Shown: piece after piece, positions 8,105 to 64,000 of the stretch
Layout: each line of letters begins with the position of its first letter
Position numbering within the stretch: the first letter of the stretch is position 1
Assembly (NCBI RefSeq): GCF_024298765.1
Contig: NZ_CP101211.1
DNA from: Escherichia coli
GTDB taxonomy: Bacteria > Pseudomonadota > Gammaproteobacteria > Enterobacterales > Enterobacteriaceae
Length of the DNA: 64,000 bases
Direction: 5' to 3' (one strand)
The notes under the pieces: generated by a model
What the model saw: only the letters and a program-made list of their open reading frames with translations
What the model was told of the DNA's origin: nothing
The model's database searches: none
Translations under genes and position numbers: made by a program

Positions 8105-8161
8105 TCCTGTTAAGGGGGAACCCTAACGGGGCTTCTCTTTGAACAAATCGAGGAGCGGAAA

Positions 8162-8539: not shown

Positions 8540-8599
8540 CATTAAACCCACCCTAAAGGGGAGAAATCCCTTCATGGGATTTCTCCTTTTGGAGTCCCC

Positions 8600-9577: not shown

Positions 9578-9634
9578 AATGCCACTGGCAAACATCTGCC
9601 AGAGGGCGGTGTTTGCATTTTACCGGAGTTAAAA

Positions 9635-10693: not shown

Positions 10694-11049
10694 ATGGGAT
10701 TTGTTATGAAACCTCTGATATTTGTATCTCAGAGTTATCCCATCTTGAATTTAGTGCGTTTTTAAGTACGGATGGTGCTGCTACCATTGCTATAGCAAAA
10801 AACGGAACTAATTTTACTGGACTTATGCAACTGAATAACGACTATTCTTTATTGTTTTATCATGATGGTAAAATAAATATGGAAGGTCTGATTAAACAAA
10901 TGGAATTAAAAGGTTATATGTATCAGGGAGCAATGGGCAATGATGATGTTGTTGCTGAGTTTCCCGGTATTCTTTTAATTTCACCAGAGTAGCTTTAATA
11001 TCAACCCTATCGGGAAATCTTTCCCGTTGGGGAGGGTTTCCCCTTTTTT

Positions 11050-12189: not shown

Positions 12190-12266
12190 CTGTTTGCTTT
12201 ATTAAAAACCCCAGATGGGTACTTCACCATCTGGGTGAGTACCCCTTTTTTATAAAGAGGTATTCT

Positions 12267-14279
12267 ATGAAATTAGATCTTAAATCATCACCGCGCCATA
12301 TTAAGCGTTTACAGAATATAGCAAAAGTCATTAGCGGCTTAGGCGATGTAAGAGTTGTAATAGACGACAATACCAAAGGACCGTATTTTGATCCTGTAAA
12401 TAAAGTTTGTGTTTTACCAAACGGCGATTATAGCGATGATGACTTTGTCAGTCTGATTGAAGGTTTTACCTGTCATGAAGCTGGTCATGGTCGCTATACC
12501 GACAGCGAGGTTTACAGTGACGCCTTTAATAGTGTTCTCAAGTCATCTGAAGGGTTTACACGCTTCGATGACGGAATGAATGCAGAGTTTGAGAGCCTCG
12601 CTGAGAAACGTAAAGCTTATAGCAGGGCAAAACGTCTTACCGGGCTTATAAATCTGTTCGATGATGTACAGATGGAAGAGAAGGTTGGTAACGATTATCC
12701 GGATGCAAAGCGGCGGCTTGCAGCCACTTACGCACTGATGGTTAAAGCCGGAAGGATGACTCCTGATATATCTTCTCGTCCGGAAAATCCTGTCCTATTT
12801 ATTGAGTGGTATCTGCTTAACTCATTGCGAGTAAAAGTCCTTCAGCAGGCAGGTCACAAAGAAACACTCGATCCGTTTTTTGACTATGCCCAAAAGATAC
12901 TTTCTCCAGTAATTTCTGATGTTGAGGAAATTTTTCATGATGCTCTTGGTTGTGAAAATACTCAGGGCTGTGAATCCCTTGCTCGTAAGACCCTGGCTCT
13001 TTTAGAGAGACTGCGGGATGAGGCAAGGGAACAACAGCAGCAGACAGAGCAGGAGGAGCAGGAGGCATATGATGAATCCGAGACCGAGACCGAGACCGAT
13101 ACCGAATCAGAAGATAAATCGCTTGAGTCGACTGATAGTCGTGAGGATGATTCTGAGGACGATAGTGAAGGTCAGGCAGATACTTCCGATAACTCTGATC
13201 TTGCTCAAGAGGGATGTTCTGAGCCTTCAGAACTTGCTGAAGATAACGAGGGAAATAATGAACCCACCGGTGGCAATCCCACAGGTGATAACATTATTGA
13301 AGACGATACTGATGCGATTAACCCTTCCGAGAGTGAATCAGATGAAGCCAGTTCGACTAACGTTGAAGATGAAAGTAACTTTTCATCGGCTCAATGGGAG
13401 ATACTGGCAGATTTGTTGGATGCCTTTCTTGGCAGTGATGAGGATAGCGAAGATTATCACGATGCTTTGGCTAAAGAGATTGAAGGTATTGCATCAAAAG
13501 TATCCGATGACGTGAAAGCCGAATTCGGTGCTTCTGAATGGGATATCCCTGATCTCCTTATCGATTTGAATGTTTACAATGAGGCTTTGTCTCTGAGTCA
13601 TTCAATCGGTAGCGACTTGTCTGTTTTACAGCAGGTTAAAATGCGTGGCCGAAACAAAACTCATGAGCGTGGAATTACCTTCGATGGAAATCGATTAATT
13701 CTGTCACCAATGGGAGTTCGTGATGTCTTCAGAGCTCAAAGCGAATCTAAAAATAGAGGGCATGTTGGCCTCGTATTAGTTCGTGATATTTCAGCGTCAA
13801 TGGCTAATGATGAAAGATATATTCATGCCATTAAGTCAGATCTTGCTTTATCGATGGCCGCTGAAAGTTTGTCAAAAATGCATGTCTCCAATATAGTCTT
13901 TCCCTTCAAGGAAAGTGAATTTGAGATTATCAAAACGTTTGATCAAAGCGTTGAGGAATCTCTATCGAAATTCACTCTTGGATGTAAGGGTTATTATACC
14001 CCTACGGGATCGGCTTTAATGGCAGCTGTTGATCTGTTACTTGACAGCCAATTCGATAGGAAAATAATTTTTCTTATAACTGATGGTTATCCGAATAAAT
14101 CGGAATTTACTATCGGCGAAGTTATGGAAAAGGCTAAATGTAATGGAATAGAAATCGTTGGTGTTGGTATTAAGACTGATGAAATAATTGGTTTTGAAAC
14201 GGACACTTTCGTAACAGTTGATGATACTTCTTTATTGTCTATTGAAGTCAGTAAGCTAGTTCATCAAATACTTTCTTAA
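12267..14279 (+). CDS. vWA-domain protein with N-terminal HExxH motif and acidic linker (CobT-like architecture)
   Basis: 670 aa; HEAGH motif near residue 70, long D/E/S/T-rich low-complexity linker, C-terminal vWA with MIDAS-like DISAS and downstream TDG. Confidence 0.6.
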   Translation: MKLDLKSSPRHIKRLQNIAKVISGLGDVRVVIDDNTKGPYFDPVNKVCVLPNGDYSDDDFVSLIEGFTCHEAGHGRYTDSEVYSDAFNSVLKSSEGFTRFDDGMNAEFESLAEKRKAYSRAKRLTGLINLFDDVQMEEKVGNDYPDAKRRLAATYALMVKAGRMTPDISSRPENPVLFIEWYLLNSLRVKVLQQAGHKETLDPFFDYAQKILSPVISDVEEIFHDALGCENTQGCESLARKTLALLERLRDEAREQQQQTEQEEQEAYDESETETETDTESEDKSLESTDSREDDSEDDSEGQADTSDNSDLAQEGCSEPSELAEDNEGNNEPTGGNPTGDNIIEDDTDAINPSESESDEASSTNVEDESNFSSAQWEILADLLDAFLGSDEDSEDYHDALAKEIEGIASKVSDDVKAEFGASEWDIPDLLIDLNVYNEALSLSHSIGSDLSVLQQVKMRGRNKTHERGITFDGNRLILSPMGVRDVFRAQSESKNRGHVGLVLVRDISASMANDERYIHAIKSDLALSMAAESLSKMHVSNIVFPFKESEFEIIKTFDQSVEESLSKFTLGCKGYYTPTGSALMAAVDLLLDSQFDRKIIFLITDGYPNKSEFTIGEVMEKAKCNGIEIVGVGIKTDEIIGFETDTFVTVDDTSLLSIEVSKLVHQILS

Positions 14280-14350
14280 TAAACTCTACCCAATCGGGGC
14301 AAAAGGCCCCGGTGGGTCTTTTTGCTCCATGAAGGAATAAGGAGCAAAAT

Positions 14351-14572
14351 ATGACTCAGATAAAAACTTACCGTGTAGAACATGAAAAAGTCGGTGCGAT
14401 GCATAAAGTCCGTATTTTCGGACGTGTTGGTGAAGTTATAAGCAATGATAGCCCTCAGGAAAGAATCTTCCGCGAAGTCACTATAGCGGAGGGTAATAGC
14501 CAGCAGGCTGCGTTACTTGTAGATAACTACATACAGCGTCTTGAGAATAATGGCTTCACGACTGAAGCATAA
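14351..14572 (+). CDS. Small hypothetical protein
   Basis: 73-aa ORF with RBS aaggag upstream; palindrome terminator GAGGGCCCCCGGGCCCTC downstream. Confidence 0.3.
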   Translation: MTQIKTYRVEHEKVGAMHKVRIFGRVGEVISNDSPQERIFREVTIAEGNSQQAALLVDNYIQRLENNGFTTEA

Positions 14573-14613
14573 ATGTTGAGGGCCCCCGGGCCCTCTTTCT
14601 TAAATTCTGCGTT

Positions 14614-15918
14614 GTGGGTTTCTCCCTGTCTTCTGCACCGCAGAAGGCATTGAGAAACTCACAATGCCAGATAAGAGAGATCATCATGACTTATGCATCC
14701 CCGGCTCTTCGTCGTAATCCACAGGAAGTATCTGAACACTTTATTAAACTCGTTCATGCTCGAATTGCTGAAGTGTCTGGCTGGAAGTATATATTCGAAA
14801 GAATACCTGCTTTCAAAGACGCTTGTGCAAAAGCCCCGAGCCAGGTTCCTTGCCCGTTTACTGGCGCAGGGAAATCGAAGTTTCGTTTCCGACAAAAAGA
14901 CCTTTATACCGGATGTGCGATCCATAATGACTTTCCGGTAAATGAGTTTTGCGACGGAATTGATGTTCTGGCGAAATATTATGAATTAAGTAAAACGCAG
15001 ACTTGCAAAAAGATTCTCTCAGATTTTTTCGGGATGGATCTGCATGCTCCGTTAACTGACGCCGACATTGAAAATGAACGACGCTATAAATCAGCAGTTC
15101 GTGCCACAGAAACTCTTGACCGAGAGGAAGTGGCAAAGCGAATGCGAAAACTTGATGTGATGTATCACTATACCGGTGAAATCAAGCCTAATACTCCTGT
15201 TGCTTTGTACCTCCGTAATCGTGGGATCTCCCGCTTACTGAGTCACTTACCAAAGGATTTAGGCTTTAATAACCGGATCTACTATTGGGATAAAGATAAG
15301 CAGAAATCGATTATCTATCCGGGAATGATTGCGATCTATCGTGACACCCGAGGTCGGCCTCTGACTATTCATAGAACATACGTAGACAAAAATGGTGATA
15401 AGGCACCTGTAGAAAATCCAAAGCTGATGATGAAGCCTCCTGCCGATATGACAGGTGGCTCAATTCAGTTGTTTGACCCTCACTATGATTCAGGTAGTTC
15501 GACCTGGACACTGGGAGTGGCTGAAGGGATCGAGAACGCGCTTTCTGTTGTAGAAGCGACTTCAACACCATGCTGGGCAGCCAGCTCCGCATGGTGCCTT
15601 GAAAACGTTACTGTTCCTGATTTTTTACTGCCTCCGCCGGATGTAAAATCTATAAACTTTTATATCTGGGCGGATAAGGATATTGCTAACTCACAAGGCA
15701 CTCGTGCCGGTATTGAAGCTGCTCAGCGACTTCAAAGCCGCATGGTTGAGTTTTTGGCTAAACGATATCCCGCATCAAAGCTGACAATTGAAGTCTTCGA
15801 ACCAGCACAAGATATTCCTGATGGGAAAAAGGGTATCGACTGGAACGATGTTCTCCAGTTAACAGGGCAGGATGGATTCCCGATTCACTGGGCTCCTGAA
15901 TGTCTTAATCAGCTGTAA
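14614..15918 (+). CDS. Primase-like protein (P4-type primase zinc-binding motif plus Toprim-like segment)
   Basis: CPFTGAGKSKFRF resembles the CPxCGGxDRFRF Zn-binding motif of primase-helicases; later GVAEGIENALS resembles a Toprim acidic motif; true start may be internal ATG at 14686. Confidence 0.45.
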   Translation: MGFSLSSAPQKALRNSQCQIREIIMTYASPALRRNPQEVSEHFIKLVHARIAEVSGWKYIFERIPAFKDACAKAPSQVPCPFTGAGKSKFRFRQKDLYTGCAIHNDFPVNEFCDGIDVLAKYYELSKTQTCKKILSDFFGMDLHAPLTDADIENERRYKSAVRATETLDREEVAKRMRKLDVMYHYTGEIKPNTPVALYLRNRGISRLLSHLPKDLGFNNRIYYWDKDKQKSIIYPGMIAIYRDTRGRPLTIHRTYVDKNGDKAPVENPKLMMKPPADMTGGSIQLFDPHYDSGSSTWTLGVAEGIENALSVVEATSTPCWAASSAWCLENVTVPDFLLPPPDVKSINFYIWADKDIANSQGTRAGIEAAQRLQSRMVEFLAKRYPASKLTIEVFEPAQDIPDGKKGIDWNDVLQLTGQDGFPIHWAPECLNQL

Positions 15919-15950
15919 CAACGATAACTCCCCCGCTTTTTGCGGGGGGG

Positions 15951-15996
15951 GTTATCTTATCAATATTATATTTTAAAATTGTATTGATAAGATAAC
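15951..15996. promoter_or_regulatory. 46-bp perfect palindrome (15-bp arms GTTATCTTATCAATA / TATTGATAAGATAAC, 16-bp AT spacer)
   Basis: Read directly; lies in a 270-bp intergenic region after a GC hairpin terminator (CCCCCGC-ttttt-GCGGGGG). Confidence 0.4.
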
Positions 15997-16188
15997 CGCT
16001 TTCCTTCGTGATAATTACCTGCCTTTAAGGTCTTTTCACGGCTGAGATGCTTGCTCAGTTAAATAAATGTGCGGTACTACTGGCTATGGTCGGTTGTATG
16101 ACATGGTTATTCCATAAACTATTAAAACCCATAACGGGAGTATTACCGTTATGGTGATGCTCGTCGTTTTACATCGGAGAGCATTTTA

Positions 16189-16710
16189 ATGAATTTTCAA
16201 ATTAACGAAGTTTTTAATAAATTTGCTGCTGTTATAAAATCGCGCATCGTCAATGAACCATCGTCATGCTATTTGCTGCATGATAATGAGATAGATATAA
16301 CGATTTTGAAACATAGCATATTAGAAAATGACAGAAACCTGTTGTACGTAGTTCGTCCTTCAGGAACGTGTTTGTTGCGTTGTGACAAATATTTCTATCC
16401 GAAATATTATCTTCGTTGCCGTGGAGATTATAAGTCATTCATATATGTCCATCTTGATCTACATAGTGGTGAAGCTAAAGAAATCACATGGGAGCAAGCA
16501 GACGATATGCTGTCTAGTCCAGGAAAACCCCCATTAAAAGGGAATCTTGGACGATTTGAGTATATAAAAGTTGTGGTTGAGGACCTTCGTATTCGAGGTT
16601 ACGCTGATTATCTTCCTGCGTATAATCTTGATGACCTTCGCCGTTTTGCCTTACAGGACGACCGCCCATCCCTTGTCAGATACATTGACAATGTCATGGC
16701 AACGGTCTGA
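16189..16710 (+). CDS. Hypothetical protein
   Basis: 173-aa ORF with RBS ggagag. Confidence 0.35.
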   Translation: MNFQINEVFNKFAAVIKSRIVNEPSSCYLLHDNEIDITILKHSILENDRNLLYVVRPSGTCLLRCDKYFYPKYYLRCRGDYKSFIYVHLDLHSGEAKEITWEQADDMLSSPGKPPLKGNLGRFEYIKVVVEDLRIRGYADYLPAYNLDDLRRFALQDDRPSLVRYIDNVMATV

Positions 16711-16788
16711 TTGATTGCTAATTGATTTACATATTTTCCCTGATGGCCAACCTGCATCAGGGAGGCCTCAATAACGAATGGAGGCTGT

Positions 16789-17667
16789 ATGAAGTTAGCT
16801 ACGGACCTGGTAAAAGCTATTTTGATTAGAAATGGCGTTGAACCAGTAAATATAAGCGAATCATCTAAGTTATCTTTGAAACAACCACTGACAGAACTTA
16901 AATTCAGTTTATATTTGCGAACTGAGCATTTATCTCACTTCCTACCCGGTTATGTTTATTCTATAAAAGAATGTCCACTGTCATATGACATCGGGATCGA
17001 AATTCAGAAAATCTTCGAAAGTTTACATTTGTTAAACGAAGAATTTGAATCCCTCGGTTTTGTTTCTGTATGGATAGAAATGCATCAAAGCATTTTTGAA
17101 CAAAGTCGGTTTAAGAAAAGTAACTTTACTTTTCGGGAGGAAGAGGTCGAGCTTGCTAAAGGGCTTGTTTGTTCTCACAATTCACAAATAAGTAATGCGG
17201 CTTATTTCTGGCTTCAGCACTTTGAGGAGTTTATGATTTATGTTCGTAATAAGCTTATCGACCTCTTTCGAGAGGCCTATGACCTGATCCTTGGAATGCA
17301 GCAAGTATTTTTCATTCGGGAAAAGGAAGAGCTGTTGAAAACTATAAGTTATGGCGATGAGCTGTATGAGGTGAAATTCATGGCGGCTGAGCTTTACTCT
17401 ATCGAACAGAACTTAAAGTGTTCTGAATCGATAAGTACAAAATCTCAAGCTTCGGCATATATTAACCGCATCCGTGAGTTTGTGCGTTCGGGGTGGAGGC
17501 AGGGCTATATAGTCTGCCATCATAAGCGAAGTAATCAAATTTCATCATTGTCATTACCGATGTACTTGAAAGATACGTCAGGCCGAAGTGCTCGAAAGCG
17601 AGTAAAACGTCTTATATCTTCTACAGTTTGTGGTAGAAATAAAGATTTAGGTCTTACAGATTTTTAA
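16789..17667 (+). CDS. Hypothetical protein, member of tandem paralog array
   Basis: 292-aa ORF; shared N-terminal pattern (h-x-x-h-L-x-x-x-G) with neighbours; hairpin CCCTGATG..CATCAGGG upstream. Confidence 0.35.
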   Translation: MKLATDLVKAILIRNGVEPVNISESSKLSLKQPLTELKFSLYLRTEHLSHFLPGYVYSIKECPLSYDIGIEIQKIFESLHLLNEEFESLGFVSVWIEMHQSIFEQSRFKKSNFTFREEEVELAKGLVCSHNSQISNAAYFWLQHFEEFMIYVRNKLIDLFREAYDLILGMQQVFFIREKEELLKTISYGDELYEVKFMAAELYSIEQNLKCSESISTKSQASAYINRIREFVRSGWRQGYIVCHHKRSNQISSLSLPMYLKDTSGRSARKRVKRLISSTVCGRNKDLGLTDF

Positions 17668-17737
17668 TTAAATTATACCCATGTGGGGATCACACCCCAT
17701 ATGGGAGTGATCCCTTTTTTTATTGAGAGAGGATCAC

Positions 17738-18493
17738 ATGAAAATTATCGAAAAAATCATTAATGCCTTTTTGGTTGTTCAACATAAAAAAATACAGGTT
17801 AAAAACATTACATTTTTAGACAATGGGCAGGGCATGTTCTCTGGTATGTCTTTTGATGCTGATGTTTCACTGGAGTTTATGTATGAATCAGCAAAAGCAT
17901 ATAGTTCTTGTTTCTGTGATATTCCCTTTCCAGGTTTTGAAGATGCAAATCTGGAGGAAATTACGAAATTTCAATTAGATGCTCTGAAGCAAAGAAAGAA
18001 TCATTCTTTCTTTGTTAACCATTTGAGGTTTCCTATAGTTTTAAGGGAAGGGTGCAAAATCGAAAGAGGAGAAGTCTATTCAATTTCGAATTGCACTTAT
18101 AATAAAGAAAGATTGCAGTATCTTTTTTCTCAGGATATTTACGGTAAGTTGTATAATTCCTTAGAGAAAGAATTAAGCTCGTTTTTCTCATTTATCAATG
18201 TTGAGGTGCACGAGTTGTTAAAAGATGCTGTATGCTTTGCATTAAAAATCCTGAATAAGATATCTTTGGATACACCTGAAAGACTTATTAAAGCTTTTAA
18301 TTATCGTGACTGGTATTGTAGTTACGATGTTGAGCTTTTTAGGAAAGGCTTACCTGGTCATATTCTGGAAGAGCTCATTGCTCCAGATATCTTACTTTCA
18401 GACCTTAACGGTTGTAGAAAAATACTTAGAAATGCAAAACGATTTCTAAATGGACATACACAAACCAATTGTGTTTATATTAAATATGAATGA
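17738..18493 (+). CDS. Hypothetical protein, possible paralog-array member
   Basis: ATG preceded by RBS gagagagga (track gives TTG start at 17723); hairpin plus T-run immediately upstream. Confidence 0.35.
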   Translation: MKIIEKIINAFLVVQHKKIQVKNITFLDNGQGMFSGMSFDADVSLEFMYESAKAYSSCFCDIPFPGFEDANLEEITKFQLDALKQRKNHSFFVNHLRFPIVLREGCKIERGEVYSISNCTYNKERLQYLFSQDIYGKLYNSLEKELSSFFSFINVEVHELLKDAVCFALKILNKISLDTPERLIKAFNYRDWYCSYDVELFRKGLPGHILEELIAPDILLSDLNGCRKILRNAKRFLNGHTQTNCVYIKYE

Positions 18494-18741
18494 TGGTTGG
18501 GGCCTGTTGATACCTCACACTCAGCTAAGTTGATGTCTGACAAAGAAATTAATAACCGAAGTGACTTGAAGAATTTTTCAAAGGTCTTTTTCAAAGAGTG
18601 TTTAAGTTCTGGTAAGTCGGAATATGAAAACCATCTTAGTGAAAAAGAACATGCGCTTCGCTATAATTATTAATTAAAATTATTTTCTCCCATAGGGATT
18701 TCTCCCTATGGGAGAAATCCCTCTATTAAGAGGGTATTGAA

Positions 18742-19662
18742 ATGAATGCTATACAAAAGTTAGTTGAATCTATTCTTGTTAAAATGGGTTTTGTTGGCGC
18801 TGTAGTGGAAAATATATATTTGGATTCAAAACCATTTCGGCATATTCGATTTGTGGCTGATATTCCAGTAATATCTTTTCTACCTCATTTGGTGAAATAT
18901 CTTAAGGGTGCAGACCATCTTTACAGTGGTAACGATGATTTGCATCCTCTTTTCATTTATTTTTCCGAAGCGGCTACATTAAAAGCAGGTCCTGTAAATC
19001 TCGCGAACTTTCGTTTTGAAGTTTCTATAGCTTCAACTCATTTACGACTGGTCTCAGAGCAGCCTGATTTGCTTTTCAAAGGATTTAACCGGGATAATCT
19101 AGAATACGTTTATTACCGCTCAGATTTGGCCTCTAAGGATCTTATACTAGGCCTTGTTGAACACGGTTCTCCTTTCATAAAACATCTACATGGACTTATA
19201 CAAAAGCGAATTTTAAACGAGTTCTCTCTGATTTTTTCTGTTCTTGAAAAGATTTTAGAAAGCGCGAAGCCACAAATTCTTGCTTGCTTCCATAGTGTTG
19301 ATTATGAAATGAACGTAAAAATAATAGCCGAAGCTATACCTGAAACTGTATCTAATCAGATAGTCACATCTGATTATATAGTTAATTCTATATCAGATGC
19401 GGACAAGTTTATAAATCATGTTCGTCGCTATTTAGCAGGCAGGGTAATGAAGAGGCGGATATACGCTGAATTAGATGTTTGTGAAGAAACATCAAGTATT
19501 TCACTAGTGAACTTAGGATGCTTTACGTCTCCTCTGCTCGTTACGGAATATCAAATGTTTAAGCCACACTCTTCAGGGTTATATCGAAAAGCTATAAACA
19601 ACTCCTTAAAACAGTTCAAACCAGAAATGCATGTACCTTCTGAAGAACTCTTTTATAATTAA
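18742..19662 (+). CDS. Hypothetical protein, paralog-array member
   Basis: 306-aa ORF; nested perfect palindromes directly upstream. Confidence 0.35.
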   Translation: MNAIQKLVESILVKMGFVGAVVENIYLDSKPFRHIRFVADIPVISFLPHLVKYLKGADHLYSGNDDLHPLFIYFSEAATLKAGPVNLANFRFEVSIASTHLRLVSEQPDLLFKGFNRDNLEYVYYRSDLASKDLILGLVEHGSPFIKHLHGLIQKRILNEFSLIFSVLEKILESAKPQILACFHSVDYEMNVKIIAEAIPETVSNQIVTSDYIVNSISDADKFINHVRRYLAGRVMKRRIYAELDVCEETSSISLVNLGCFTSPLLVTEYQMFKPHSSGLYRKAINNSLKQFKPEMHVPSEELFYN

Positions 19663-19728
19663 TCTAACCCATCCGGGAACCTGCTTCCCGGTGGGAAGCA
19701 CTTCCTTTTTAGTCATGAGGTAGTGTAA

Positions 19729-20667
19729 ATGTTTAAAGAATCTGACCACGTGGAATTTGTTAGTGCCTTTCTTTATCAAAATTTAGGCCTTAATGTTTCC
19801 GCTGACGATATAACCGTTCAATTATCTGATACTTCGTTCGACAAAGTAACCTTTGATTACGATGTAGATATCGATAATTTAAATTGTATGTTGGATCTCT
19901 ACATATCTGAGCTAATAAAGCACAACGCATCTTACTCCGATTCTATTCTTTTGAAACAAAAAATAATTTATTTTCTTGGAGTATTTAAGAATTTCGGATT
20001 TTTTACGTTTGATATTCGCGGATATAGTAATACTTTAAGCCCAGTTAAAGTTATTGATATTGTTTCAATGATTATTAATGACTGTGAAGAGTTATCTAAA
20101 GCTAATTCTTCTACTGATGCTATAAGAAATCTTTATCTCGATAAAATGAAGGTGGATGGGAAAGTGTTAGTTGCGAAATTTGCACTTAAACAGTTTTTTC
20201 ATTCCGACTTTGGTGACTTTATCTCATTTGTCGAGAAAAGAATTACAGATTGTCTTAATGAAACTTTAAGGATTATCAAAGCTGTTGAACATGGCTTTGT
20301 ACGTGTAGGGCAGCATAAGATTAATCGCCGTATTAATGATGACTTAAAGTTATGCATTGATTTCAATACTGATGATTATCCGGCAAATATGCCAGATATA
20401 TATATTAAGTTTAACGATACATTTGATGGGAACGGGGCGTTATATTGTGACAATGATGCCCTCATATCCCTCTATACCGATGTTGCTTCAATTATCAATG
20501 TGCCGGTGATGATGGAAGTAAGATTGATCAATAAAAGAGGGCGTGTTGTCTGTGATTCTTCGCATTCAACTTACGTATCTCTCGAAAGTAATGACCGATA
20601 CAGAGTAACTGATCGCACATTACTAATAACTGAAGCTTTTGACGATTTTCGTAACGCGTCTCAATGA
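19729..20667 (+). CDS. Hypothetical protein, paralog-array member (intact sister of the IS1-split gene)
   Basis: 312 aa; N- and C-terminal blocks align with the 20833 gene (VLVAKFALKQFFHSDF vs VMIARFALQQFWDTHF); near-identical RBS gaggtagtgtaaatg. Confidence 0.4.
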   Translation: MFKESDHVEFVSAFLYQNLGLNVSADDITVQLSDTSFDKVTFDYDVDIDNLNCMLDLYISELIKHNASYSDSILLKQKIIYFLGVFKNFGFFTFDIRGYSNTLSPVKVIDIVSMIINDCEELSKANSSTDAIRNLYLDKMKVDGKVLVAKFALKQFFHSDFGDFISFVEKRITDCLNETLRIIKAVEHGFVRVGQHKINRRINDDLKLCIDFNTDDYPANMPDIYIKFNDTFDGNGALYCDNDALISLYTDVASIINVPVMMEVRLINKRGRVVCDSSHSTYVSLESNDRYRVTDRTLLITEAFDDFRNASQ

Positions 20668-28538: not shown

Positions 28539-28699
28539 CGGGATACACTGGTTTTAATTACAGGTCATTTTAGCACTCATGTACCTGGTTATGAACAGGG
28601 TGGAAACAACGAAAAAGGTTGTGAAATCGTTAGGCTTAAGTGAAAAATGATATTAAGATTATCCCTGGCCAGTTGAGGCCTGTCTAAAGAAGGTTGATT

Positions 28700-28912
28700 A
28701 TGTCTGACACAAAGCAGTCTTATTTAATGAAATTCCGTAAGTGTAGTTCGTTCGAAACGCTCGAAAAAGTATTTGAAAGGTTATGTGAAAAAAACTCGGG
28801 TGTCGCCTCTCTTGAAATTTCTGGTGCTTATGATCATCGTAAAGCCGAACTGACAATGAAAAAGTTATATGACAAAGTTCCTGCGAGTGTGTGGACCTTT
28901 GTTCGCGAGTAA
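28700..28912 (+). CDS. Small hypothetical protein
   Basis: 70-aa ORF from ATG with RBS aaggttg. Confidence 0.25.
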   Translation: MSDTKQSYLMKFRKCSSFETLEKVFERLCEKNSGVASLEISGAYDHRKAELTMKKLYDKVPASVWTFVRE

Positions 28913-55616: not shown

Positions 55617-56942
55617 ATGAGCCGGAAACAGCAACGTCTGGTAATTTGGATGAACGGCATCAAAGTCGGGTACTGGGAAAAAAGCAAAGGGGTAGACAGC
55701 TTAGAATACCTTCCTGAATGGGTTGCTGACGAACAGGGAAGGCCGCTGTCATTGTCCCTTCCTTTTACTCCCGGGAACCAGGTCTGGCGTGGAAATGTGG
55801 TACGTGACTATTTTGATAATTTACTGCCGGACAGCGAAGGCATACGCAGACGTCTGGCAATGCGTTACAAGGCCGATAGCCTGGAGCCTTTTGATCTGCT
55901 GACGGAGCTGGGAAAAGACTGCGTGGGCGCGATACAGCTGCTTCATGACGGAGATGAACCCACTGATTTATATTCCGTGAAGTATCACCCGCTTACTGAA
56001 TCAGAAATTGCGGCAACTTTGCGTAATACCACGGAGACATTGCTACCGGGCAGGCCAGAAGATAACGACGACTTACGTTTATCTATTGCCGGTGCTCAGG
56101 AGAAAACAGCCCTACTGTGGCATGAAGATCGGTGGTGTATGCCGGAGGGTAATACACCAACGACGCATATATTCAAGCTACCGCTCGGACTTGTGGGGAA
56201 CATGAAAGCCGACATGAGCTCGTCGGTTGAAAATGAATGGCTCTGCTCGGTACTTCTCGGCCAGTACGGGCTCCCCGTGGCAAGAACGCAGATTGCTCAC
56301 TTTGAAGATCAGAAAGCGCTGGTGGTAGAACGTTTTGACCGAAAATGGTCAGGAGACGGACAATGGATCATTCGTTTACCCCAGGAGGATATGTGTCAGG
56401 CCCTGGGCGTTTCGCCATTACGAAAATATCAGGCGGACGGCGGGCCAGGTATATCGGAAATTATGGAGGTTCTGAGTAATTCAGACCGTGCTGAGCGTGA
56501 CAAAGCGCAGTTTTTTATGACGCAGATAATTTTCTGGATGATGGCCGCAACAGATGGCCACGCTAAAAATTTCAGTATTTCTATTGGGCCACAGGGACGT
56601 TATCACCTTACACCAAACTATGATGTGTTGTCGGCATGGCCGGTGATCGGTCATGGGAACAATCAGATATCCTGGCAGAAGTGCAAACTGGCGATGGCCG
56701 TACGTGGCAGTAGCAACTATTACCAGATATATCGAATACAACGACGCCACTGGATCAGGCATGGTGAGATAACCGGCCTGAGTAAACAGCAGACAGAGGC
56801 GATGATAGAGGAAATCATCGCCAGAACCCCGGGTGTCATTGAACGTGTTAGCGGGCTTCTTCCGGACCAGTTCCCCCAGCAGCTTGCGGAAAGTATTTTT
56901 GATGGAATGAGGCAGCAATGCAGGCGCCTGGCTGAGAAATGA
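55617..56942 (+). CDS. hipA: HipA-family Ser/Thr kinase toxin
   Basis: 441 aa; conserved blocks FDNLLPDS, SIAGAQEKTAL, ERFDR, RLPQEDMCQ, TDGHAKNFS shared with E. coli HipA as recalled. Confidence 0.75.
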   Translation: MSRKQQRLVIWMNGIKVGYWEKSKGVDSLEYLPEWVADEQGRPLSLSLPFTPGNQVWRGNVVRDYFDNLLPDSEGIRRRLAMRYKADSLEPFDLLTELGKDCVGAIQLLHDGDEPTDLYSVKYHPLTESEIAATLRNTTETLLPGRPEDNDDLRLSIAGAQEKTALLWHEDRWCMPEGNTPTTHIFKLPLGLVGNMKADMSSSVENEWLCSVLLGQYGLPVARTQIAHFEDQKALVVERFDRKWSGDGQWIIRLPQEDMCQALGVSPLRKYQADGGPGISEIMEVLSNSDRAERDKAQFFMTQIIFWMMAATDGHAKNFSISIGPQGRYHLTPNYDVLSAWPVIGHGNNQISWQKCKLAMAVRGSSNYYQIYRIQRRHWIRHGEITGLSKQQTEAMIEEIIARTPGVIERVSGLLPDQFPQQLAESIFDGMRQQCRRLAEK

Positions 56943-57002
56943 CAGCCGCAATTTATAGTGTGCATGTTTTCAGAATAGCTGATGTAAGCGTGAGGATTCA
57001 GT

Positions 57003-57209
57003 ATGACTGAAGAACAAAAAAGAATAGAGCGGGCTATTGAGTTGGCTTGTCGTTACGGCGGAACCGATGAAATGCATCATCTGCAATGGGTCGTGGATCA
57101 GATGGTAAGAGAACTTGCTGGAGAACGTTATGCACAGATTGTAGCTGATGCCACCAGCGGAGAAGATGGGCCTGATACTTACAAATGGAGTGTTGGGATC
57201 GCGCCTTAA
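57003..57209 (+). CDS. Small hypothetical protein
   Basis: 68-aa ORF. Confidence 0.25.
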   Translation: MTEEQKRIERAIELACRYGGTDEMHHLQWVVDQMVRELAGERYAQIVADATSGEDGPDTYKWSVGIAP

Positions 57210-57310
57210 CAGCTGTCGGTCTGGGGGTGAAAACGTATTCTTCATTCAGCGAATTCCCAGGCTTCACATTAAGACTAAAGCGGCGGCCGCAGTAACGTAA
57301 GAGAAAATAA

Positions 57311-57721
57311 ATGGCTATTTTAGCAATCATTGCAGTTATCGCCCTGGGTGGGTACGCCTACGGATTTATTAAAACCCGTGAGCTGAGCGCTTTGCGTAAA
57401 GAAATGAAACTATACGTGGATCGCATGGAAGCGGCGGAGCTGGACTTACACGCAATCAGAAGTGTAGCGGAGCACCGGTTGCACGGTGCAGGTAAACAGT
57501 TTGCCGACCTTTACAGCCGTATCGACGGTGCAACTGTGACGCTGACACCCGAAGATCAGCTGTTACTGGCAACGATGCCATTTAATATTCAGGATGTAGA
57601 AGACATCGTAAACGAGCGCGGTCCAAAGACAATTAGCGGCCGTCCATTCTGGGAAGTTGAGCCAGGCCCGCATGATTATGAATATGGCCCGCAATATCCG
57701 TATTTCCCAGACCAGCGCTAG
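57311..57721 (+). CDS. Hypothetical protein with N-terminal transmembrane helix
   Basis: 136 aa; N-terminus MAILAIIAVIALGGYAYGFI. Confidence 0.3.
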   Translation: MAILAIIAVIALGGYAYGFIKTRELSALRKEMKLYVDRMEAAELDLHAIRSVAEHRLHGAGKQFADLYSRIDGATVTLTPEDQLLLATMPFNIQDVEDIVNERGPKTISGRPFWEVEPGPHDYEYGPQYPYFPDQR

Positions 57722-57733
57722 GAAGAGATCAAG

Positions 57734-58549
57734 ATGAGAGAGCCAAGACCACGCCATACCTTGCAGGTCATTCGTGTACCTTCTCTGGAGGTTCAGGACC
57801 TGGGGCTGACCAGCTTTGATAGCTGGCTTGACGAGCACGGGTATGACAAAACGAATGCCAGAAATAACCGTACCATCTGGGCGAGAGAAGGCGGATGGCA
57901 TCTGAAACGTTGCAGAAATCTTGAAACTGGCACGGACGATTTCTGGTTTATCGCTTTCGATGGTAAAGGCGGGAAGATTTACCCGCTGAAAACCCAAAGA
58001 GACTACCGGGCTGCATATCGTAAGCTGGAAGCAGAAGGTTATGCGCCTGCGGTCATCGAGCAAATGACCACAGGCGCAGCATATAACCTGGCCTATCCAC
58101 GTTCCACCCTAAAACAAGCTGAGACGGCCACCAGCGAGCCAATTCGGAAACCTGACGTAGATATCCAGGGTGAGCACTGCGAGCGCGTAGTGACGCAACG
58201 TAGTGGCGTGGCACAGGGTAAATTCAAAGCTCTGCTCATCGAGAATTTCGCAGGCCGTTGTGCGGTAACCGGTTGGGTTAATGGAGGTGTCCTGGATGCG
58301 GCACACATTGAACATGGAACCCGGTACAATCCGTCTAATGGCATCCTGATGACTCCAACAATGCATGCGCTGTTTGATGCCGATCTTATGGGCATAGATC
58401 CGGCCACCCTGACCGTTCATTTTAAGCCAGGCATTGAGGTGGGCGAGCTGTTTGAAGGCCGTAAAATCACACCGCTGGTGTACGATCTGGACTTAGAGCG
58501 GCTGGCCGTACGCTGGGCAGAATACCAGGGCCTTGCTCAGGACCAATGA
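57734..58549 (+). CDS. HNH endonuclease-domain protein
   Basis: 271 aa; C-terminal CAVTG..AAHI..NGILMTPTMHALFD..IDP is an HNH-type motif. Confidence 0.55.
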   Translation: MREPRPRHTLQVIRVPSLEVQDLGLTSFDSWLDEHGYDKTNARNNRTIWAREGGWHLKRCRNLETGTDDFWFIAFDGKGGKIYPLKTQRDYRAAYRKLEAEGYAPAVIEQMTTGAAYNLAYPRSTLKQAETATSEPIRKPDVDIQGEHCERVVTQRSGVAQGKFKALLIENFAGRCAVTGWVNGGVLDAAHIEHGTRYNPSNGILMTPTMHALFDADLMGIDPATLTVHFKPGIEVGELFEGRKITPLVYDLDLERLAVRWAEYQGLAQDQ

Positions 58550-58802
58550 AGGGTGACAGCCAGGTTGTGCCTAAACCTGGCAGTAAAACCTGCATGCCAC
58601 AAACCTTTAAATTCTGACTCAAGAGCCTGGCACAAGATAAAAGCGAAATGAAAAGGTTAAAACCGGTGCACCAGACCTCTTAGGTTTAATACCTGAGCCA
58701 GTATACTGGCAGTCTCAGGTAAGTGGGTATCATACACTTCAGAAATATCCACACCGAGATAACCGCAACAGTTAAAGAGCTAAAAAGGACGGTTTTAATT
58801 TT

Positions 58803-59228
58803 ATGAATAAAACAGCTTTAATTATGATTCTGGGAATCCTCGGATGTGGTAAAGCATTTGCAGCCACTGAATTACAGCTCCAGCAAAAACGCGTTATGCA
58901 TTTCTGTGCCAATGCCAGCCTTCCGTTGTTGATTGCCGGTACAACTTATGCGAATACGTCTGACAATGGACGACCAGAAAAAGAAAGAGTGGCAATCCTG
59001 AAAAATTCAGTTGCAAGCTCGACAGCTTATAAAATGGCATCTCCCGGAGTTCAGATGGCCATGATGAGCGTGGTGGAAGATATTGCCGATCCGAAAGAAT
59101 TAGCTCTACATCAAAAAGAAGTTAGACGTCTTGGGGCTAGTTATCTTTCCGACAGCGGTGTTTCATGGGCTTCAAAAACTGTTTCACCATTTACAGCCTG
59201 GTGTAACTTTAACCGTTTAGAAAGTTAA
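58803..59228 (+). CDS. Hypothetical secreted protein
   Basis: 141 aa; signal peptide MNKTALIMILGILGCGKAFA. Confidence 0.35.
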   Translation: MNKTALIMILGILGCGKAFAATELQLQQKRVMHFCANASLPLLIAGTTYANTSDNGRPEKERVAILKNSVASSTAYKMASPGVQMAMMSVVEDIADPKELALHQKEVRRLGASYLSDSGVSWASKTVSPFTAWCNFNRLES

Positions 59229-59776
59229 GGCTGGCAAGGCGGTTTCTGTTCAGGAAAGTTACTTTCCGTGCGGGGACCGTAAGATACAGATAAAGCTTAA
59301 GGCCTTTGAATTTTTGGAAAGCATTTGAAAATTTCATTGCGCTTGTCTGATATGAAACAGCCCCTGCATTTCTGCAAAGGCTGAAAGAGTGTGTACGGAC
59401 TTTGGAAGGAGTGATGATATACGCCTGAGCCATCCCATCACCGCAGACAGGGTAATTAACCCTGACTAAAGCTTTCACCTATTCCGTCGCTCGCAAGCGG
59501 CTTTCGCACACTAACGAAGGTATGGCCTTTCGTCGGTGTTAAATTTTTCAAACTTTGCTTACTTTGTCAAGGAAGGTGACCGCAGTAGCAGGCACAACTA
59601 CTTTAATCTGTATGAATAATAAGGTAGAACCGGCCAGTGAATGAATGCTTACCCTGAAATCAGGCGGACAACCTTCAGGAATATTGATAGCAAGACTGAA
59701 TCTCTCGCTGCGGCGATAAACATTTCGCCATAACCCTGAACGAGAGTGGTTCATCCATCATATACAGGAGCGTTAC

Positions 59777-60085
59777 ATGCGCAAATTTAAGTACATAATC
59801 TGTCACCAGTGCGAAGGCCACGGGACCATGGAAAACCCGGCCTTTGAAAATGGATTCACCCAATCAGAAATGGCTGAGTGGGAGCCAGAAATGCGTGAAA
59901 AGTATTTTGCCGGAGCATTTGATGTTCGCTGTAACGTTTGTGCCGGTGACGGTAAGCTCAGCGTACCAAACGTAGCGGCTATGTCTTTTTCAGAACGACG
60001 GGTTCTGGCAGCACGGCGGCGTGATGAGCGTCTTCAGGCTGCTGATGAACGGCTGTCCCGCCAGGAACGAGCAATGGGGTACTGA
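59777..60085 (+). CDS. Hypothetical Zn-ribbon protein
   Basis: 102 aa; CHQCEGHG .. CNVCAGDG paired Cys motifs. Confidence 0.3.
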   Translation: MRKFKYIICHQCEGHGTMENPAFENGFTQSEMAEWEPEMREKYFAGAFDVRCNVCAGDGKLSVPNVAAMSFSERRVLAARRRDERLQAADERLSRQERAMGY

Positions 60086-60100
60086 GGTGCTACAGCAAAG

Positions 60101-60958
60101 ATGAAAATGACGAAGCCAAAACCGGTAAGCCGGATGAAAAGACCGTTTATTAGTGAGCTTGCAGAGCTGGGTTTATCGGGTGAAATTCTTTCAATTCGAA
60201 CTGACGGCATGCAGGGGACGCTCATACCCGATCTTACCGCAGGGGTGAGTGAAGCAGGCCGTGTGAAAACCGGCAACTGGGTAATCTCTGACAAGAGAAC
60301 CTTCGACCATGTCGTTCTGTGTGTTGAAAGACAAGATGAGAACCATGATGTGTACGTAGGTAAATTCATCCAGTTACATGTAGCCGCTAATAAGAGCCTT
60401 AAGATCGTCGAAATGGGCGATGTGAAACTGGTGGCCATAACCAGCTCGATTCCTACCACTTTTAATGGTGGGATAAAGAGATACAAAGGGGTTACGTATG
60501 TGTCACTTTCCCAAACAGCTCAAACCACTATCGACTTCCCGAAGCGTATCTACAAAGAGGGCCAGGAATGTACTTCTGTCACCAGTCCTGACCAAGGTCC
60601 TTTCGCCCGGGATGTTAGGTTGAATTGCTACGGGCGATGTGTTGTCACCGGCGTAAGGTCCCCCTGGCGTACTGAGGCCGCGCACTTAACGCCACGTCAT
60701 GAAGAAGGCATTCCCGACGTAACGAACGGAATTTTACTTCGCCGTGATATCCATACACTGTTCGACAATGACCATTGCGCCATAAACCCTGACACTATGA
60801 AAATTTACTTCAGCCGGGAGGCCCGGGAGTTGGATGATGATCTCCTGAAATGGCATGGGAATGAGATAGAGACGACACGCATGCAGGTTCCGGTTAACAT
60901 CGAAAACCTTCGGATACGATGGCAAAAATTTAAGGCTAAGGATCGTCAGCGTAAATAA
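60101..60958 (+). CDS. HNH endonuclease-domain protein (paralog of the 57734 gene in the HNH region)
   Basis: 285 aa; CVVTG..AAHL..NGILLRRDIHTLFD..INP matches the same HNH-type motif with a different N-terminal domain. Confidence 0.55.
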   Translation: MKMTKPKPVSRMKRPFISELAELGLSGEILSIRTDGMQGTLIPDLTAGVSEAGRVKTGNWVISDKRTFDHVVLCVERQDENHDVYVGKFIQLHVAANKSLKIVEMGDVKLVAITSSIPTTFNGGIKRYKGVTYVSLSQTAQTTIDFPKRIYKEGQECTSVTSPDQGPFARDVRLNCYGRCVVTGVRSPWRTEAAHLTPRHEEGIPDVTNGILLRRDIHTLFDNDHCAINPDTMKIYFSREARELDDDLLKWHGNEIETTRMQVPVNIENLRIRWQKFKAKDRQRK

Positions 60959-61019
60959 AGCCATAAGCTGAACCACGGCGAGGATTAGTCTTGTTCACTA
61001 AATGACAGCGAGAGATTAA

Positions 61020-61223
61020 ATGCAAACCCAAAAAGAAATTACAGTTGGCCAGATCTGGGAAGAAGTGGATCCAAGACTGATCCGGAAAGTGCGGGTTGTT
61101 GAGGTGGCCTCGTTAGAAGGGCCCAAAGGCATCCTTATCGAAAACGTGGAGTCTGGTCGTAAGAACTGGGCGTCGTCATCCCGCTTTAATGGAAAGCGTG
61201 GAGGGTATCGTCTTATTTCCTGA
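61020..61223 (+). CDS. Small hypothetical protein
   Basis: 67-aa ORF. Confidence 0.2.
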   Translation: MQTQKEITVGQIWEEVDPRLIRKVRVVEVASLEGPKGILIENVESGRKNWASSSRFNGKRGGYRLIS

Positions 61224-61309
61224 CGGTTTTGCCAATATGGGAAACTGAAGAGGTTGAAACCATCCCGGTGAGGGAGCATATCTGGTAAAGAAGAGTCTTT
61301 AAAAAGGTT

Positions 61310-61561
61310 TTACGCGACCTGGGATAATAAACGGGAAAACGATACCCAAAAAAAGAATACAGCGATGATAACGATAAGGAATGGTAAGGGCTTCAATATT
61401 TTGAGAAATGCCCTGGCTTCCTTTGCATCTGCATTTCTAATCAAACTGTCCACATAGGGATCACAGCTCTTAGGTTCTGAATTTTTCATATGTTCTGTAC
61501 CTGAAATTGATTCCGTATGAGAAAAGGCCACCGAAGTGGCCTCTATCAAAACTGGTGGCAA
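61310..61561 (-). CDS. Small hypothetical membrane protein
   Basis: 83 aa; C-terminal hydrophobic helix. Confidence 0.25.
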   Translation of the reverse strand: MPPVLIEATSVAFSHTESISGTEHMKNSEPKSCDPYVDSLIRNADAKEARAFLKILKPLPFLIVIIAVFFFWVSFSRLLSQVA

Positions 61562-61564
61562 AAG

Positions 61565-61848
61565 TTAGATCAGGAAATCATCAAGACTTTTACCGGCTGC
61601 AATTTGTTCTGCCAGAGCTTTGGGGGTACGGCCCTGTCCAGTCCACGTTTTTGTTTCGCCATTTTCATCAGTAAATGAGTATTTGGCCGGGCGTGGTCCA
61701 CGGCTTTTCTTGGTAGCCGTAGATTTGGCCTGGAATGAGCCAAGCAGCTCTTCCGGGTTGATACCATCTTCTTCCATTAACTTACGCAGGGCGTCAAGTT
61801 TCTCCTGACGAGCTTGCAGTTCGGCAGCTTTGGATGATTCTTCCTGAC
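61565..61848 (-). pseudogene. hns: H-NS-family nucleoid protein gene, 5' end truncated by IS26
   Basis: Encodes the H-NS C-terminal DNA-binding region ([33 protein letters not shown]); reading frame runs into the IS26 inverted repeat at 61849, N-terminal domain absent. Confidence 0.7.
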
Positions 61849-62668
61849 GGCACTGTTGCAAATAGTCGGTGGTGATAAACTTATCATCCCCTTTTGCTGA
61901 TGGAGCTGCACATGAACCCATTCAAAGGCCGGCATTTTCAGCGTGACATCATTCTGTGGGCCGTACGCTGGTACTGCAAATACGGCATCAGTTACCGTGA
62001 GCTGCAGGAGATGCTGGCTGAACGCGGAGTGAATGTCGATCACTCCACGATTTACCGCTGGGTTCAGCGTTATGCGCCTGAAATGGAAAAACGGCTGCGC
62101 TGGTACTGGCGTAACCCTTCCGATCTTTGCCCGTGGCACATGGATGAAACCTACGTGAAGGTCAATGGCCGCTGGGCGTATCTGTACCGGGCCGTCGACA
62201 GCCGGGGCCGCACTGTCGATTTTTATCTCTCCTCCCGTCGTAACAGCAAAGCTGCATACCGGTTTCTGGGTAAAATCCTCAACAACGTGAAGAAGTGGCA
62301 GATCCCGCGATTCATCAACACGGATAAAGCGCCCGCCTATGGTCGCGCGCTTGCTCTGCTCAAACGCGAAGGCCGGTGCCCGTCTGACGTTGAACACCGA
62401 CAGATTAAGTACCGGAACAACGTGATTGAATGCGATCATGGCAAACTGAAACGGATAATCGGCGCCACGCTGGGATTTAAATCCATGAAGACGGCTTACG
62501 CCACCATCAAAGGTATTGAGGTGATGCGTGCACTACGCAAAGGCCAGGCCTCAGCATTTTATTATGGTGATCCCCTGGGCGAAATGCGCCTGGTAAGCAG
62601 AGTTTTTGAAATGTAAGGCCTTTGAATAAGACAAAAGGCTGCCTCATCGCTAACTTTGCAACAGTGCC
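61849..62668 (+). mobile_element. IS26 (IS6 family), 820 bp
   Basis: 14-bp terminal inverted repeats GGCACTGTTGCAAA / TTTGCAACAGTGCC at both ends; tnp26 inside. Confidence 0.9.
61912..62616 (+). CDS. tnpA: IS26 transposase Tnp26
   Basis: 234 aa from [21 protein letters not shown], matching IS26 transposase as recalled. Confidence 0.9.
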
Positions 62669-62909
62669 TTTCACCCTCGATGCCAACCACGTCAGGTGGC
62701 AAATTTTCGACATTAACCGCGACGATGCTAAATTTCATGGAGAAGTGCGTGGGTGAAATAGCCGGTCGTCAGTCATAAAGGGCAGGGGAGTACCGTTGGC
62801 CCGGCGTTCGATAGTACCGTCCGGATACTGCCAGATATCGGCGTCCAGGGAGATGTCCTGAAGCGCGGTGTCCGGAATTTCAGGTTTGTGTCTCTACAAA
62901 GACTAACTA

Positions 62910-63725
62910 TCAGAAAAACTCATCGAGCATCAAATGAAACTGCAATTTATTCATATCAGGATTATCAATACCATATTTTTGAAAAAGCCGTTTCTGTAAT
63001 GAAGGAGAAAATTCACCGAGGCAGTTCCATAGGATGGCAAGATCCTGGTATCGGTCTGCGATTCCGACTCGTCCAACATCAATACAACCTATTAATTTCC
63101 CCTCGTCAAAAATAAGGTTATCAAGTGAGAAATCACCATGAGTGACGACTGAATCCGGTGAGAATGGCAAAAGCTTATGCATTTCTTTCCAGACTTGTTC
63201 AACAGGCCAGCCATTACGCTCGTCATCAAAATCACTCGCATCAACCAAACCGTTATTCATTCGTGATTGCGCCTGAGCGAGACGAAATACGCGATCGCTG
63301 TTAAAAGGACAATTACTAACAGGAATCGAATGCAACCGGCGCAGGAACGCTGCCAGCGCATCAACAATATTTTCACCTGAATCAGGATATTCTTCTAATA
63401 CCTGGAATGCTGTTTTCCCGGGGAGCGCAGTGGTGAGTAACCATGCATCATCAGGAGTACGGATAAAATGCTTGATGGTCGGAAGAGGCATAAATGCCGT
63501 CAGCCAGTTTAGTCTGACCATCTCATCTGTAACATCATTGGCAACGCTACCTTTGCCATGTTTCAGAAACAACTCTGGCGCATCGGGCTTCCCATACAAT
63601 CGATAGATTGTCGCACCTGATTGCCCGACATTATCGCGAGCCCATTTATACCCATATAAATCAGCATCCAGGTTGGAATTTAATCGCGGCCTCGAGCAAG
63701 ACGTTTCCCGTTGAATATGGCTCAT
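62910..63725 (-). CDS. aph(3')-I: Aminoglycoside 3'-phosphotransferase APH(3')-I (kanamycin/neomycin resistance)
   Basis: 271 aa MSHIQRETSCSRPRLNS..HGDFSLDNLIFDEGKLIGCIDVGRVGIADRYQDLAILWNCLGEFSP matches APH(3')-Ia-type enzyme as recalled. Confidence 0.9.
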   Translation of the reverse strand: MSHIQRETSCSRPRLNSNLDADLYGYKWARDNVGQSGATIYRLYGKPDAPELFLKHGKGSVANDVTDEMVRLNWLTAFMPLPTIKHFIRTPDDAWLLTTALPGKTAFQVLEEYPDSGENIVDALAAFLRRLHSIPVSNCPFNSDRVFRLAQAQSRMNNGLVDASDFDDERNGWPVEQVWKEMHKLLPFSPDSVVTHGDFSLDNLIFDEGKLIGCIDVGRVGIADRYQDLAILWNCLGEFSPSLQKRLFQKYGIDNPDMNKLQFHLMLDEFF

Positions 63726-63848
63726 AACACCCCTTGTATTACTGTTTATGTAAGCAGACAGTTTTATTGTTCATGATGATATATTTTTATCTTGTGCAAT
63801 GTAACATCAGAGATTTTGAGACACAACGTGGATTTGTTGAATAAATCG

Positions 63849-64000
63849 GGCACTGTTGCAAAGTTAGCGATGAGGCAGCCTTTTGTCTTATTCAAAGGCC
63901 TTACATTTCAAAAACTCTGCTTACCAGGCGCATTTCGCCCAGGGGATCACCATAATAAAATGCTGAGGCCTGGCCTTTGCGTAGTGCACGCATCACCTCA
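63849..64000 (-). mobile_element. Second IS26 copy, inverted relative to the first, running off the window end
   Basis: Starts with GGCACTGTTGCAAA and continues as the reverse complement of the 3' end of the first IS26 copy (62570-62668). Confidence 0.85.

Follow-up and report, generated by a model that had tools for sequence, protein, structure and literature searches.

A probable non-functional 3' remnant of the IncHI2 backbone hns gene at an IS26 boundary

DNA that is rich in A+T is the kind of DNA targeted by H-NS proteins. Site 1 of H-NS is the surface through which the protein dimerizes head to head, and it is also the surface bound by Hha. H-NST of EPEC and UPEC, together with the classical dominant-negative derivatives of H-NS, retains the N-terminal site 1 and lacks DNA binding, and H-NST is furnished with expression signals of its own. 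Within H-NS, site 1 extends over residues 1-44, site 2 over residues 52-82, the linker over residues 84-93 and the DNA-binding domain over residues 93-137 (PMC6411929), and a synthetic peptide corresponding to residues 56-82 reduces DNA bridging by H-NS in vitro (PMC5647153). The H-NS homologues of IncH plasmids make up the 'HppH' clade of Fitzgerald et al. 2020 (PMC7544231). The insertion sequence IS26 contributes only a -35 element to hybrid promoters (PMC7986276). Here, we describe a plasmid locus of Escherichia coli in which what is left of such an hns gene adjoins an IS26, located within a 64,000-nucleotide stretch of contig NZ_CP101211.1 that is referred to below as the window. Very likely, the feature is a 3' piece of the IncHI2 backbone hns gene that has lost its function, was created by an IS26-mediated rearrangement and yields little or no protein.

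The open reading frame (ORF) listing places a chimeric frame of 118 codons on the minus strand at 61565..61921, in exact agreement with the coordinates of the first-pass annotation, which had called it a plasmid hns-like gene truncated by IS26. That description is borne out, as the fragment is H-NS and ends exactly at the IS26 end. A search against Pfam matched the H-NS C-terminal domain PF00816 over its whole length (profile positions 1-38 of 38, E 2.9e-16). The match to PF22470, the N-terminal domain of H-NS, is restricted to profile positions 38-78 of 79 (E 4.2e-10), and the TWTGQGRTP loop of the DNA-binding domain can be read in the ORF, as expected of an H-NS C-terminus. With the 94 residues that do not come from the insertion sequence as a database query, full-length relatives of 134 amino acids were recovered, and tblastn of the reconstructed 134-amino acid protein against PLSDB returned 100% identical intact genes in many plasmids typed as IncHI2A. 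Our intact reference locus was NZ_LT795115.1 (L002), in which hns occupies L002:8001-8405. From hns nucleotide 121 onward, L002:8121-9395 aligns with window positions 61849..60575 at 100% DNA identity, which puts the breakpoint between hns and IS26 at hns nucleotide 120/121, with codons 1-40 lost and codons 41-134 kept. Codons 25-118 of the ORF are codons 41-134 of the intact 134-amino acid IncHI2 hns gene, with 100% identity in both protein and DNA; this comparison with plasmids carrying intact hns had been proposed as a check in the first-pass annotation, and it leaves no room for the fragment not being H-NS-like. DNA identity of 100%, tblastn and Pfam together define the 3' remnant of the IncHI2 backbone hns gene as 61565..61849 on the minus strand, consisting of codons 41-134 and the stop codon at 61565-61567; base 61849 is common to the remnant and to the IS26 terminus, leaving an ambiguity of 1 nucleotide in the junction. 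The other 24 codons (61850..61921, minus strand) are a leader derived from IS26 and not from H-NS, lying antisense to the left end of IS26 and the start of its transposase gene tnp26. The ATG of the ORF at 61921 is located 73 nucleotides inside IS26, antisense to the first tnp26 codons, and the start of the ORF overlaps the tnp26 coding sequence by 10 nucleotides on the opposite strand. The ORF had been described as running straight into the IS26 inverted repeat, and it does adjoin IS26, but rather than stopping there it crosses the repeat and starts inside the element. The 118-amino acid "protein" is a chance fusion, and the ORF exists only through an in-frame ATG within IS26.

In the RefSeq annotation produced by PGAP, the chimera is WP_065311124.1, named "H-NS family nucleoid-associated regulatory protein" and carrying no partial or pseudogene flag (L001 and L003), and the ORF is treated as a normal coding sequence in many records. 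Taken at face value, this would make it a genuine and complete member of the H-NS family whose N-terminus has diverged, an account that is extremely improbable given that the first 24 codons are 100% IS26 read antisense, that an intact 134-amino acid allele is known with identical downstream DNA, and that the N-terminal Pfam domain is matched only from profile position 38. A complete gene with a divergent N-terminus is ruled out by the alignment to intact hns and to IS26. The feature is an ordinary pseudogene remnant that is already catalogued in public databases. Surveys based on annotation would score plasmids of this kind as H-NS-positive, which almost certainly they are not.

The plasmid H-NS aligns without gaps to residues 1-81 of Salmonella H-NS (PDB 3NR7), and its C-terminus aligns to the NMR structures of the StpA and H-NS DNA-binding domains (2LRX and 1HNR). 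Projected onto these alignments, the remnant keeps 94 of 134 residues, comprising the whole of site 2, the linker and the DNA-binding domain, and site 1 alone is destroyed. A complete N-terminal oligomerization domain, made up of site 1 and site 2, is not present, residues 1-40 being replaced by IS26-derived sequence. The view that only the C-terminal DNA-binding part remains is therefore not borne out, as the central dimerization site 2 and the linker are also kept, and the proposed loss of the oligomerization domain holds for site 1 but not for site 2 when the 3NR7 alignment is read with the published limits (PMC6411929). A full N-terminal domain can be recovered neither in any reading frame nor elsewhere in the window, and tblastn with the missing hns codons 1-40 across all 64 kb gave chance matches only (best E 1.6).

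The element that ends the gene is a complete IS26 of 820 bp (61849..62668, plus strand), found by repeat search and matching annotated IS26 at 100%. It is bounded by perfect 14-bp terminal inverted repeats, with GGCACTGTTGCAAA at 61849-61862 and the inverted copy at 62655-62668; this repeat has three matches in the window versus 0.06 expected. The ORF of its tnp26 transposase (61912..62616, plus strand, ATG at 61912) consists of 234 codons and a stop, and the same protein is WP_001067855.1 in identical plasmids, where the annotation is IS6-like element IS26 family transposase. A length of 820 bp, 14-bp inverted repeats and a single 234-amino acid DDE transposase are all features of the IS26 family. 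To the right lies the resistance gene aph(3')-Ia (62910..63725, minus strand, by ORF and annotation), which is transcribed towards IS26 and the hns remnant, followed by a second IS26 (63849..64000, minus strand, by repeat and alignment) whose tnp26 is opposite to that of the first copy and which runs off the end of the window. The two inverted IS26 copies, at 61849..62668 and 63849..64000, bracket aph(3')-Ia. A 241-bp segment (62669-62909) separates the first IS26 from the 3' end of aph(3')-Ia, and owing to its presence the module is not the minimal IS26-aphA1-IS26 unit. Beside the second IS26, at 63830-63848, lies what is left of an IS903 inverted repeat, ggatttgttgaataaatcg.

No 8-bp target-site duplication surrounds the IS26 at 61849..62668, the flanks reading TTCCTGAC versus TTTCACCC, and the DNA to the right of the element is unrelated to hns. 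In plasmid pR18.0877_278k (NZ_CP037959.1; L003), which is 100% identical over window positions 56000-64000 and of which we examined 93-193 kb, the hns promoter, codons 1-40 and two small genes (the last 1.4 kb) are absent from that interval. The upstream backbone L002:1-6738, which encodes a cytosine methyltransferase, DUF1173 and other proteins, is present in inverted orientation at L003:35994-42731, 34-41 kb from the hns remnant, and ends at IS1B. The inverted 6.7-kb block is stranded between two resistance regions in pR18.0877_278k, and its IS1B end lies next to sul3. Judged by its arrangement in the sequence, the inverted block is evidence of large IS-mediated inversions in the plasmid lineage. 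The absence of a target-site duplication and the inversion of the former upstream backbone together indicate that the junction is the product of a rearrangement and not of a simple insertion. Across PLSDB, the hns 5' region is found in 744 records (722 covering at least 80% of the query) versus 718 for the intact-gene region, and as these counts are about equal, the truncated plasmids appear generally to lack the 5' piece. We propose that inversion and/or deletion mediated by IS26 removed the 5' end of hns during growth of the resistance region, in which case hns would have been collateral damage at the left edge of an IS26-rich multiresistance region.

The native hns promoter, ribosome-binding site (RBS) and start codon are all gone from the remnant, which is left with no expression signals of its own. 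A consensus scan of 61200-64000 detected, on the minus strand inside IS26 or adjacent to it, no sigma-70-like site of at least 9/12 that faces the remnant, at a threshold that already gives approximately 4 chance sites per 2.8 kb. No Shine-Dalgarno sequence precedes any of the three in-frame starts of the remnant; pairing with the 16S tail gives duplex energies of -1.7 kcal/mol at ATG 61921, +0.4 kcal/mol at TTG 61861 and -0.9 kcal/mol at ATG 61777, in comparison with -7.6 kcal/mol at the RBS of native hns and a mean of -2.1 kcal/mol across the window. Read by hand, the outward -35 of IS26 (TTGCAA, 61861..61856) is followed by a 16-bp spacer and then by AATCAT in the flank as the -10, a hybrid candidate that scores 8/12 and so falls below the threshold. 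This -35 faces the hns remnant 7 nucleotides from the IS end and lies 60 nucleotides downstream of the chimeric ATG, and because of that position an IS26 hybrid promoter cannot express the 118-amino acid ORF. The first start codon after it is ATG 61777 (Met65), which has no Shine-Dalgarno sequence and would give a 70-amino acid piece with half of site 2.

Read-through transcription into the remnant has aph(3')-Ia as its only plausible source. A promoter-like site is located ahead of that gene (63805..63776, minus strand), and from there to the remnant the consensus scan of 61200-64000 reported nothing resembling a terminator. Folding identified a GC-rich hairpin with a U-run just past the stop codon of hns (61523..61544, minus strand; 9-bp stem GAGGCCAC...GUGGCCUU, z = -2.3), which the consensus terminator scan did not report and which is probably the retained native hns terminator. 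Several observations count against the remnant being dead. Antisense read-through across IS26 could give an mRNA containing the chimeric ORF; the retained site 2, linker and DNA-binding domain form a structurally coherent module; the outward -35 of IS26 has a weak -10 in the flank to pair with; absent consensus signals do not prove absent expression; and an RNA-seq study reported high h-ns expression from an IncHI2 plasmid, from a copy that may or may not be intact. Nevertheless, the remnant is most likely silent and makes little or no protein. The lack of a promoter, of a Shine-Dalgarno sequence and of the native start would leave little or no product, and the truncated lineage would in consequence be without functional plasmid H-NS.

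The first-pass annotation had also raised the prospect of altered silencing or of a dominant-negative fragment. This is permissible as speculation, but it finds no support in the sequence, in which promoter, RBS, start and Shine-Dalgarno are lacking. In its developed form, the proposal is that the fragment is expressed, either as the 118-amino acid chimera by read-through from aph(3')-Ia or as the 70-amino acid Met65 product from the hybrid promoter, and acts on silencing as a chain-capping dominant-negative or as a weak two-headed DNA binder, pairing tail to tail with host H-NS or StpA so that filament growth is terminated. The architecture lends itself to this, as site 2, the linker and the DNA-binding domain are all kept and the remnant contains the 56-82 segment shown to be inhibitory as well as a DNA-binding domain; so does the surrounding DNA, in that the path from aph(3')-Ia to the remnant is free of terminator-like sites, IS26 ends can supply a -35 for hybrid promoters (PMC7986276), and the hairpin, taken as the native terminator, is retained. 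We nonetheless consider the proposal quite improbable, because each route lacks a Shine-Dalgarno sequence at its start, the hybrid promoter reaches only 8/12 with its -35 downstream of the chimeric ATG, the Met65 product would hold just half of site 2, and all copies are identical, making any signal of selection unreadable. If it were expressed, the fragment would be an unusual modulator of H-NS, with site 2 present and site 1 absent.

The truncated gene is by no means confined to this contig. PLSDB contains 121 records that match the 701-bp junction exactly (100% identity) and 116 that match its 8-kb context, and the junction occurs in 60 of 5,426 complete E. coli genomes. Among the hosts of the 8-kb context are Salmonella, E. 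coli, Enterobacter, Klebsiella, Shigella and E. albertii; a majority of these records are predicted to be conjugative. Contexts downstream of the junction vary among these records, and in pQnrB4_020042 the IS26 is itself cut after 301 bp; this variation implies that the junction predates diversification, and by sequence all copies probably descend from one ancestral event. Each of the three truncated plasmids in the tblastn sample has a single H-NS-like place, arguing that these plasmids (n=3) carry no compensating second copy. The spread of an identical junction among successful conjugative plasmids shows that loss of intact plasmid H-NS is tolerated. A search of the literature collection used here for an earlier description of this particular hns truncation in IncHI2 plasmids found none, the matches being to IncX hns or chromosomal hns.

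In order to estimate hns status more broadly, we took an evenly spaced sample of 60 rows from the 950 PLSDB records matching L002:7601-8800. Essentially intact hns was present in 46 of the 60, hns started exactly at nucleotide 121 in 8 (approximately 13%), and 6 (approximately 10%) were without hns. Records of the last kind show a recurrent break approximately 350 bp past the stop codon, at L002 position ~8752 within a small gene (WP_001194555.1). Going by this sample, intact hns thus seems to be missing from roughly one in four sequenced IncHI2-type plasmids, widely disseminated conjugative multiresistance plasmids among them, and such frequent loss bears on how essential a "stealth" H-NS is for large AT-rich plasmids.

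Four different junctions fall within 14 nucleotides of hns (nucleotides 108-121), three of them seen as chimeric "H-NS" proteins in the protein database. An IS903 end joins hns at nucleotide 108 (L005:1-130), the end of another mobile element joins it at nucleotide 109 on a Salmonella chromosome (CP043765.1; L006:2950-3130), an IS3-family end that is IS629-like by its orfA start joins it at nucleotide 115 (L007:1-80), and IS26 joins it at nucleotide 121 (window 61834-61849 region). Assuming that breakpoints are spread evenly across the first 41 codons, a rough post-hoc estimate made by hand puts the probability of such clustering at ~0.006, from a sample of four junctions that is tiny and shaped by ascertainment through ORF calling and clustering at 90% identity. 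Nucleotides 108-121 of hns may be an insertion hot-spot or a target of recurrent selection. The clustering could hint at selection for the fragment, and to that extent it counts against the remnant being dead. None of the L005, L006 and L007 junctions was found in PLSDB, where the single near match is an IS903B approximately 200 bp upstream of intact hns, and BLAST of the element upstream in L006 against the related loci collected here gave no match. The N-terminal 82 residues as a query returned mainly frameshift variants, together with one break near codon 61 (P0141, which departs from the H-NS sequence beyond residue 61). In addition, other IncHI2 plasmids have IS903B and IS1B a short way upstream of an intact hns.

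These data bear on two further explanations. One holds that the remnant is dead and that the loss of hns was itself adaptive, for instance through the release of transfer or resistance genes from repression. The share of IncHI2-type records in the 60-row sample that are truncated here (~13%) or without hns (a further ~10%) fits with this idea, as do the other insertion sequences that independently join hns at nucleotides 108, 109 and 115, with one more in the promoter region, and the presence of truncated plasmids, mostly predicted to be conjugative, in many genera. However, public plasmid sets are strongly biased to multiresistant lineages of clonal origin, physical linkage to a large resistance region under strong selection could have let the truncation hitch-hike, approximately 75% of records in the same sample retain an intact gene, and each of the other three junctions was seen once and never in PLSDB; we therefore think adaptive loss unlikely. 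The other explanation, which strikes us as very improbable indeed, is that a low level of fragment (residues 41-134), transcribed by aph(3')-Ia read-through or from a weak IS26 hybrid promoter, caps filaments of host H-NS or StpA tail to tail as a plasmid-borne anti-silencer, and that the clustered IS junctions reflect repeated selection for such fragments rather than a target hot-spot. Our preferred reading remains a silent remnant left by rearrangement.

The backbone that flanks the remnant in the window is 100% identical to that of plasmids typed as IncHI2A. An hha-like gene of the Hha/YmoA family, encoding 72 amino acids, is present at 28694..28912 (plus strand; tblastn with E. coli Hha, 50% identity, E 1.4e-18). 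It is kept although hns is truncated, and its usual surface on H-NS, site 1, is part of what IS26 removed. The truncated lineage presumably relies on host H-NS and StpA together with the retained plasmid Hha-like protein. An AT-rich backbone block occupies window positions 6000-20000, with 35-39% G+C in 2-kb windows versus 45-54% elsewhere. In the immediate neighborhood of hns, the IncHI2 backbone contains two genes with HNH-endonuclease signatures (window 59777-60958; L001:4735-5550), with a PF13391 match at 60101-60958, and a small CxxC-rich ORF at 59777-60085. The gene at 60101-60958 is shortened or interrupted in some relatives, and L002 carries a helicase-containing insertion.

How this locus relates to described systems can be stated for the parent gene, the fragment and the element in turn. 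The intact 134-amino acid parent is 80% identical to the homologue on S. Typhi plasmid pHCM1, which we take to be an IncHI1 plasmid (its PLSDB typing lists other replicons). By sequence, the parent would belong with the IncH-plasmid clade of H-NS proteins (Sfh/R27/HppH-like), and like the Sfh and R27 proteins it is encoded on a conjugative plasmid, here typed as IncHI2A, and has the same two-domain architecture and DNA-binding motif. Unlike Sfh, what is present here is codons 41-134 only, without promoter, RBS or start, and the stealth and silencing function of Sfh is not to be assumed. The remnant resembles H-NST in being a partial H-NS with one self-association surface that might, in principle, assemble into mixed complexes with the full-length protein, but its architecture is the reverse, site 1 being lost and site 2 and the DNA-binding domain kept, and no expression signals are detectable, which sets it apart from H-NST-like proteins. 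The IS26 end resembles the hybrid promoters described for aphA7, blaSHV-2a and blaKPC in having a TTGCAA -35 in its terminal repeat, and differs from them in that the flank offers only AATCAT as a -10 and a transcript would begin in hns-derived sequence, downstream of the annotated start. In itself the finding matters little, being a routine IS26 boundary scar that more than 100 public plasmids share byte for byte. IS26 present in multiple copies and in both orientations, an IS26-bracketed aph(3')-Ia, the lack of a target-site duplication and the inverted or deleted backbone are all shared with known IS26-bounded resistance regions (PMC7986276). Compared with other regions of this type nothing here is unusual, and the sole particular is that the truncated gene encodes a nucleoid-associated silencer.
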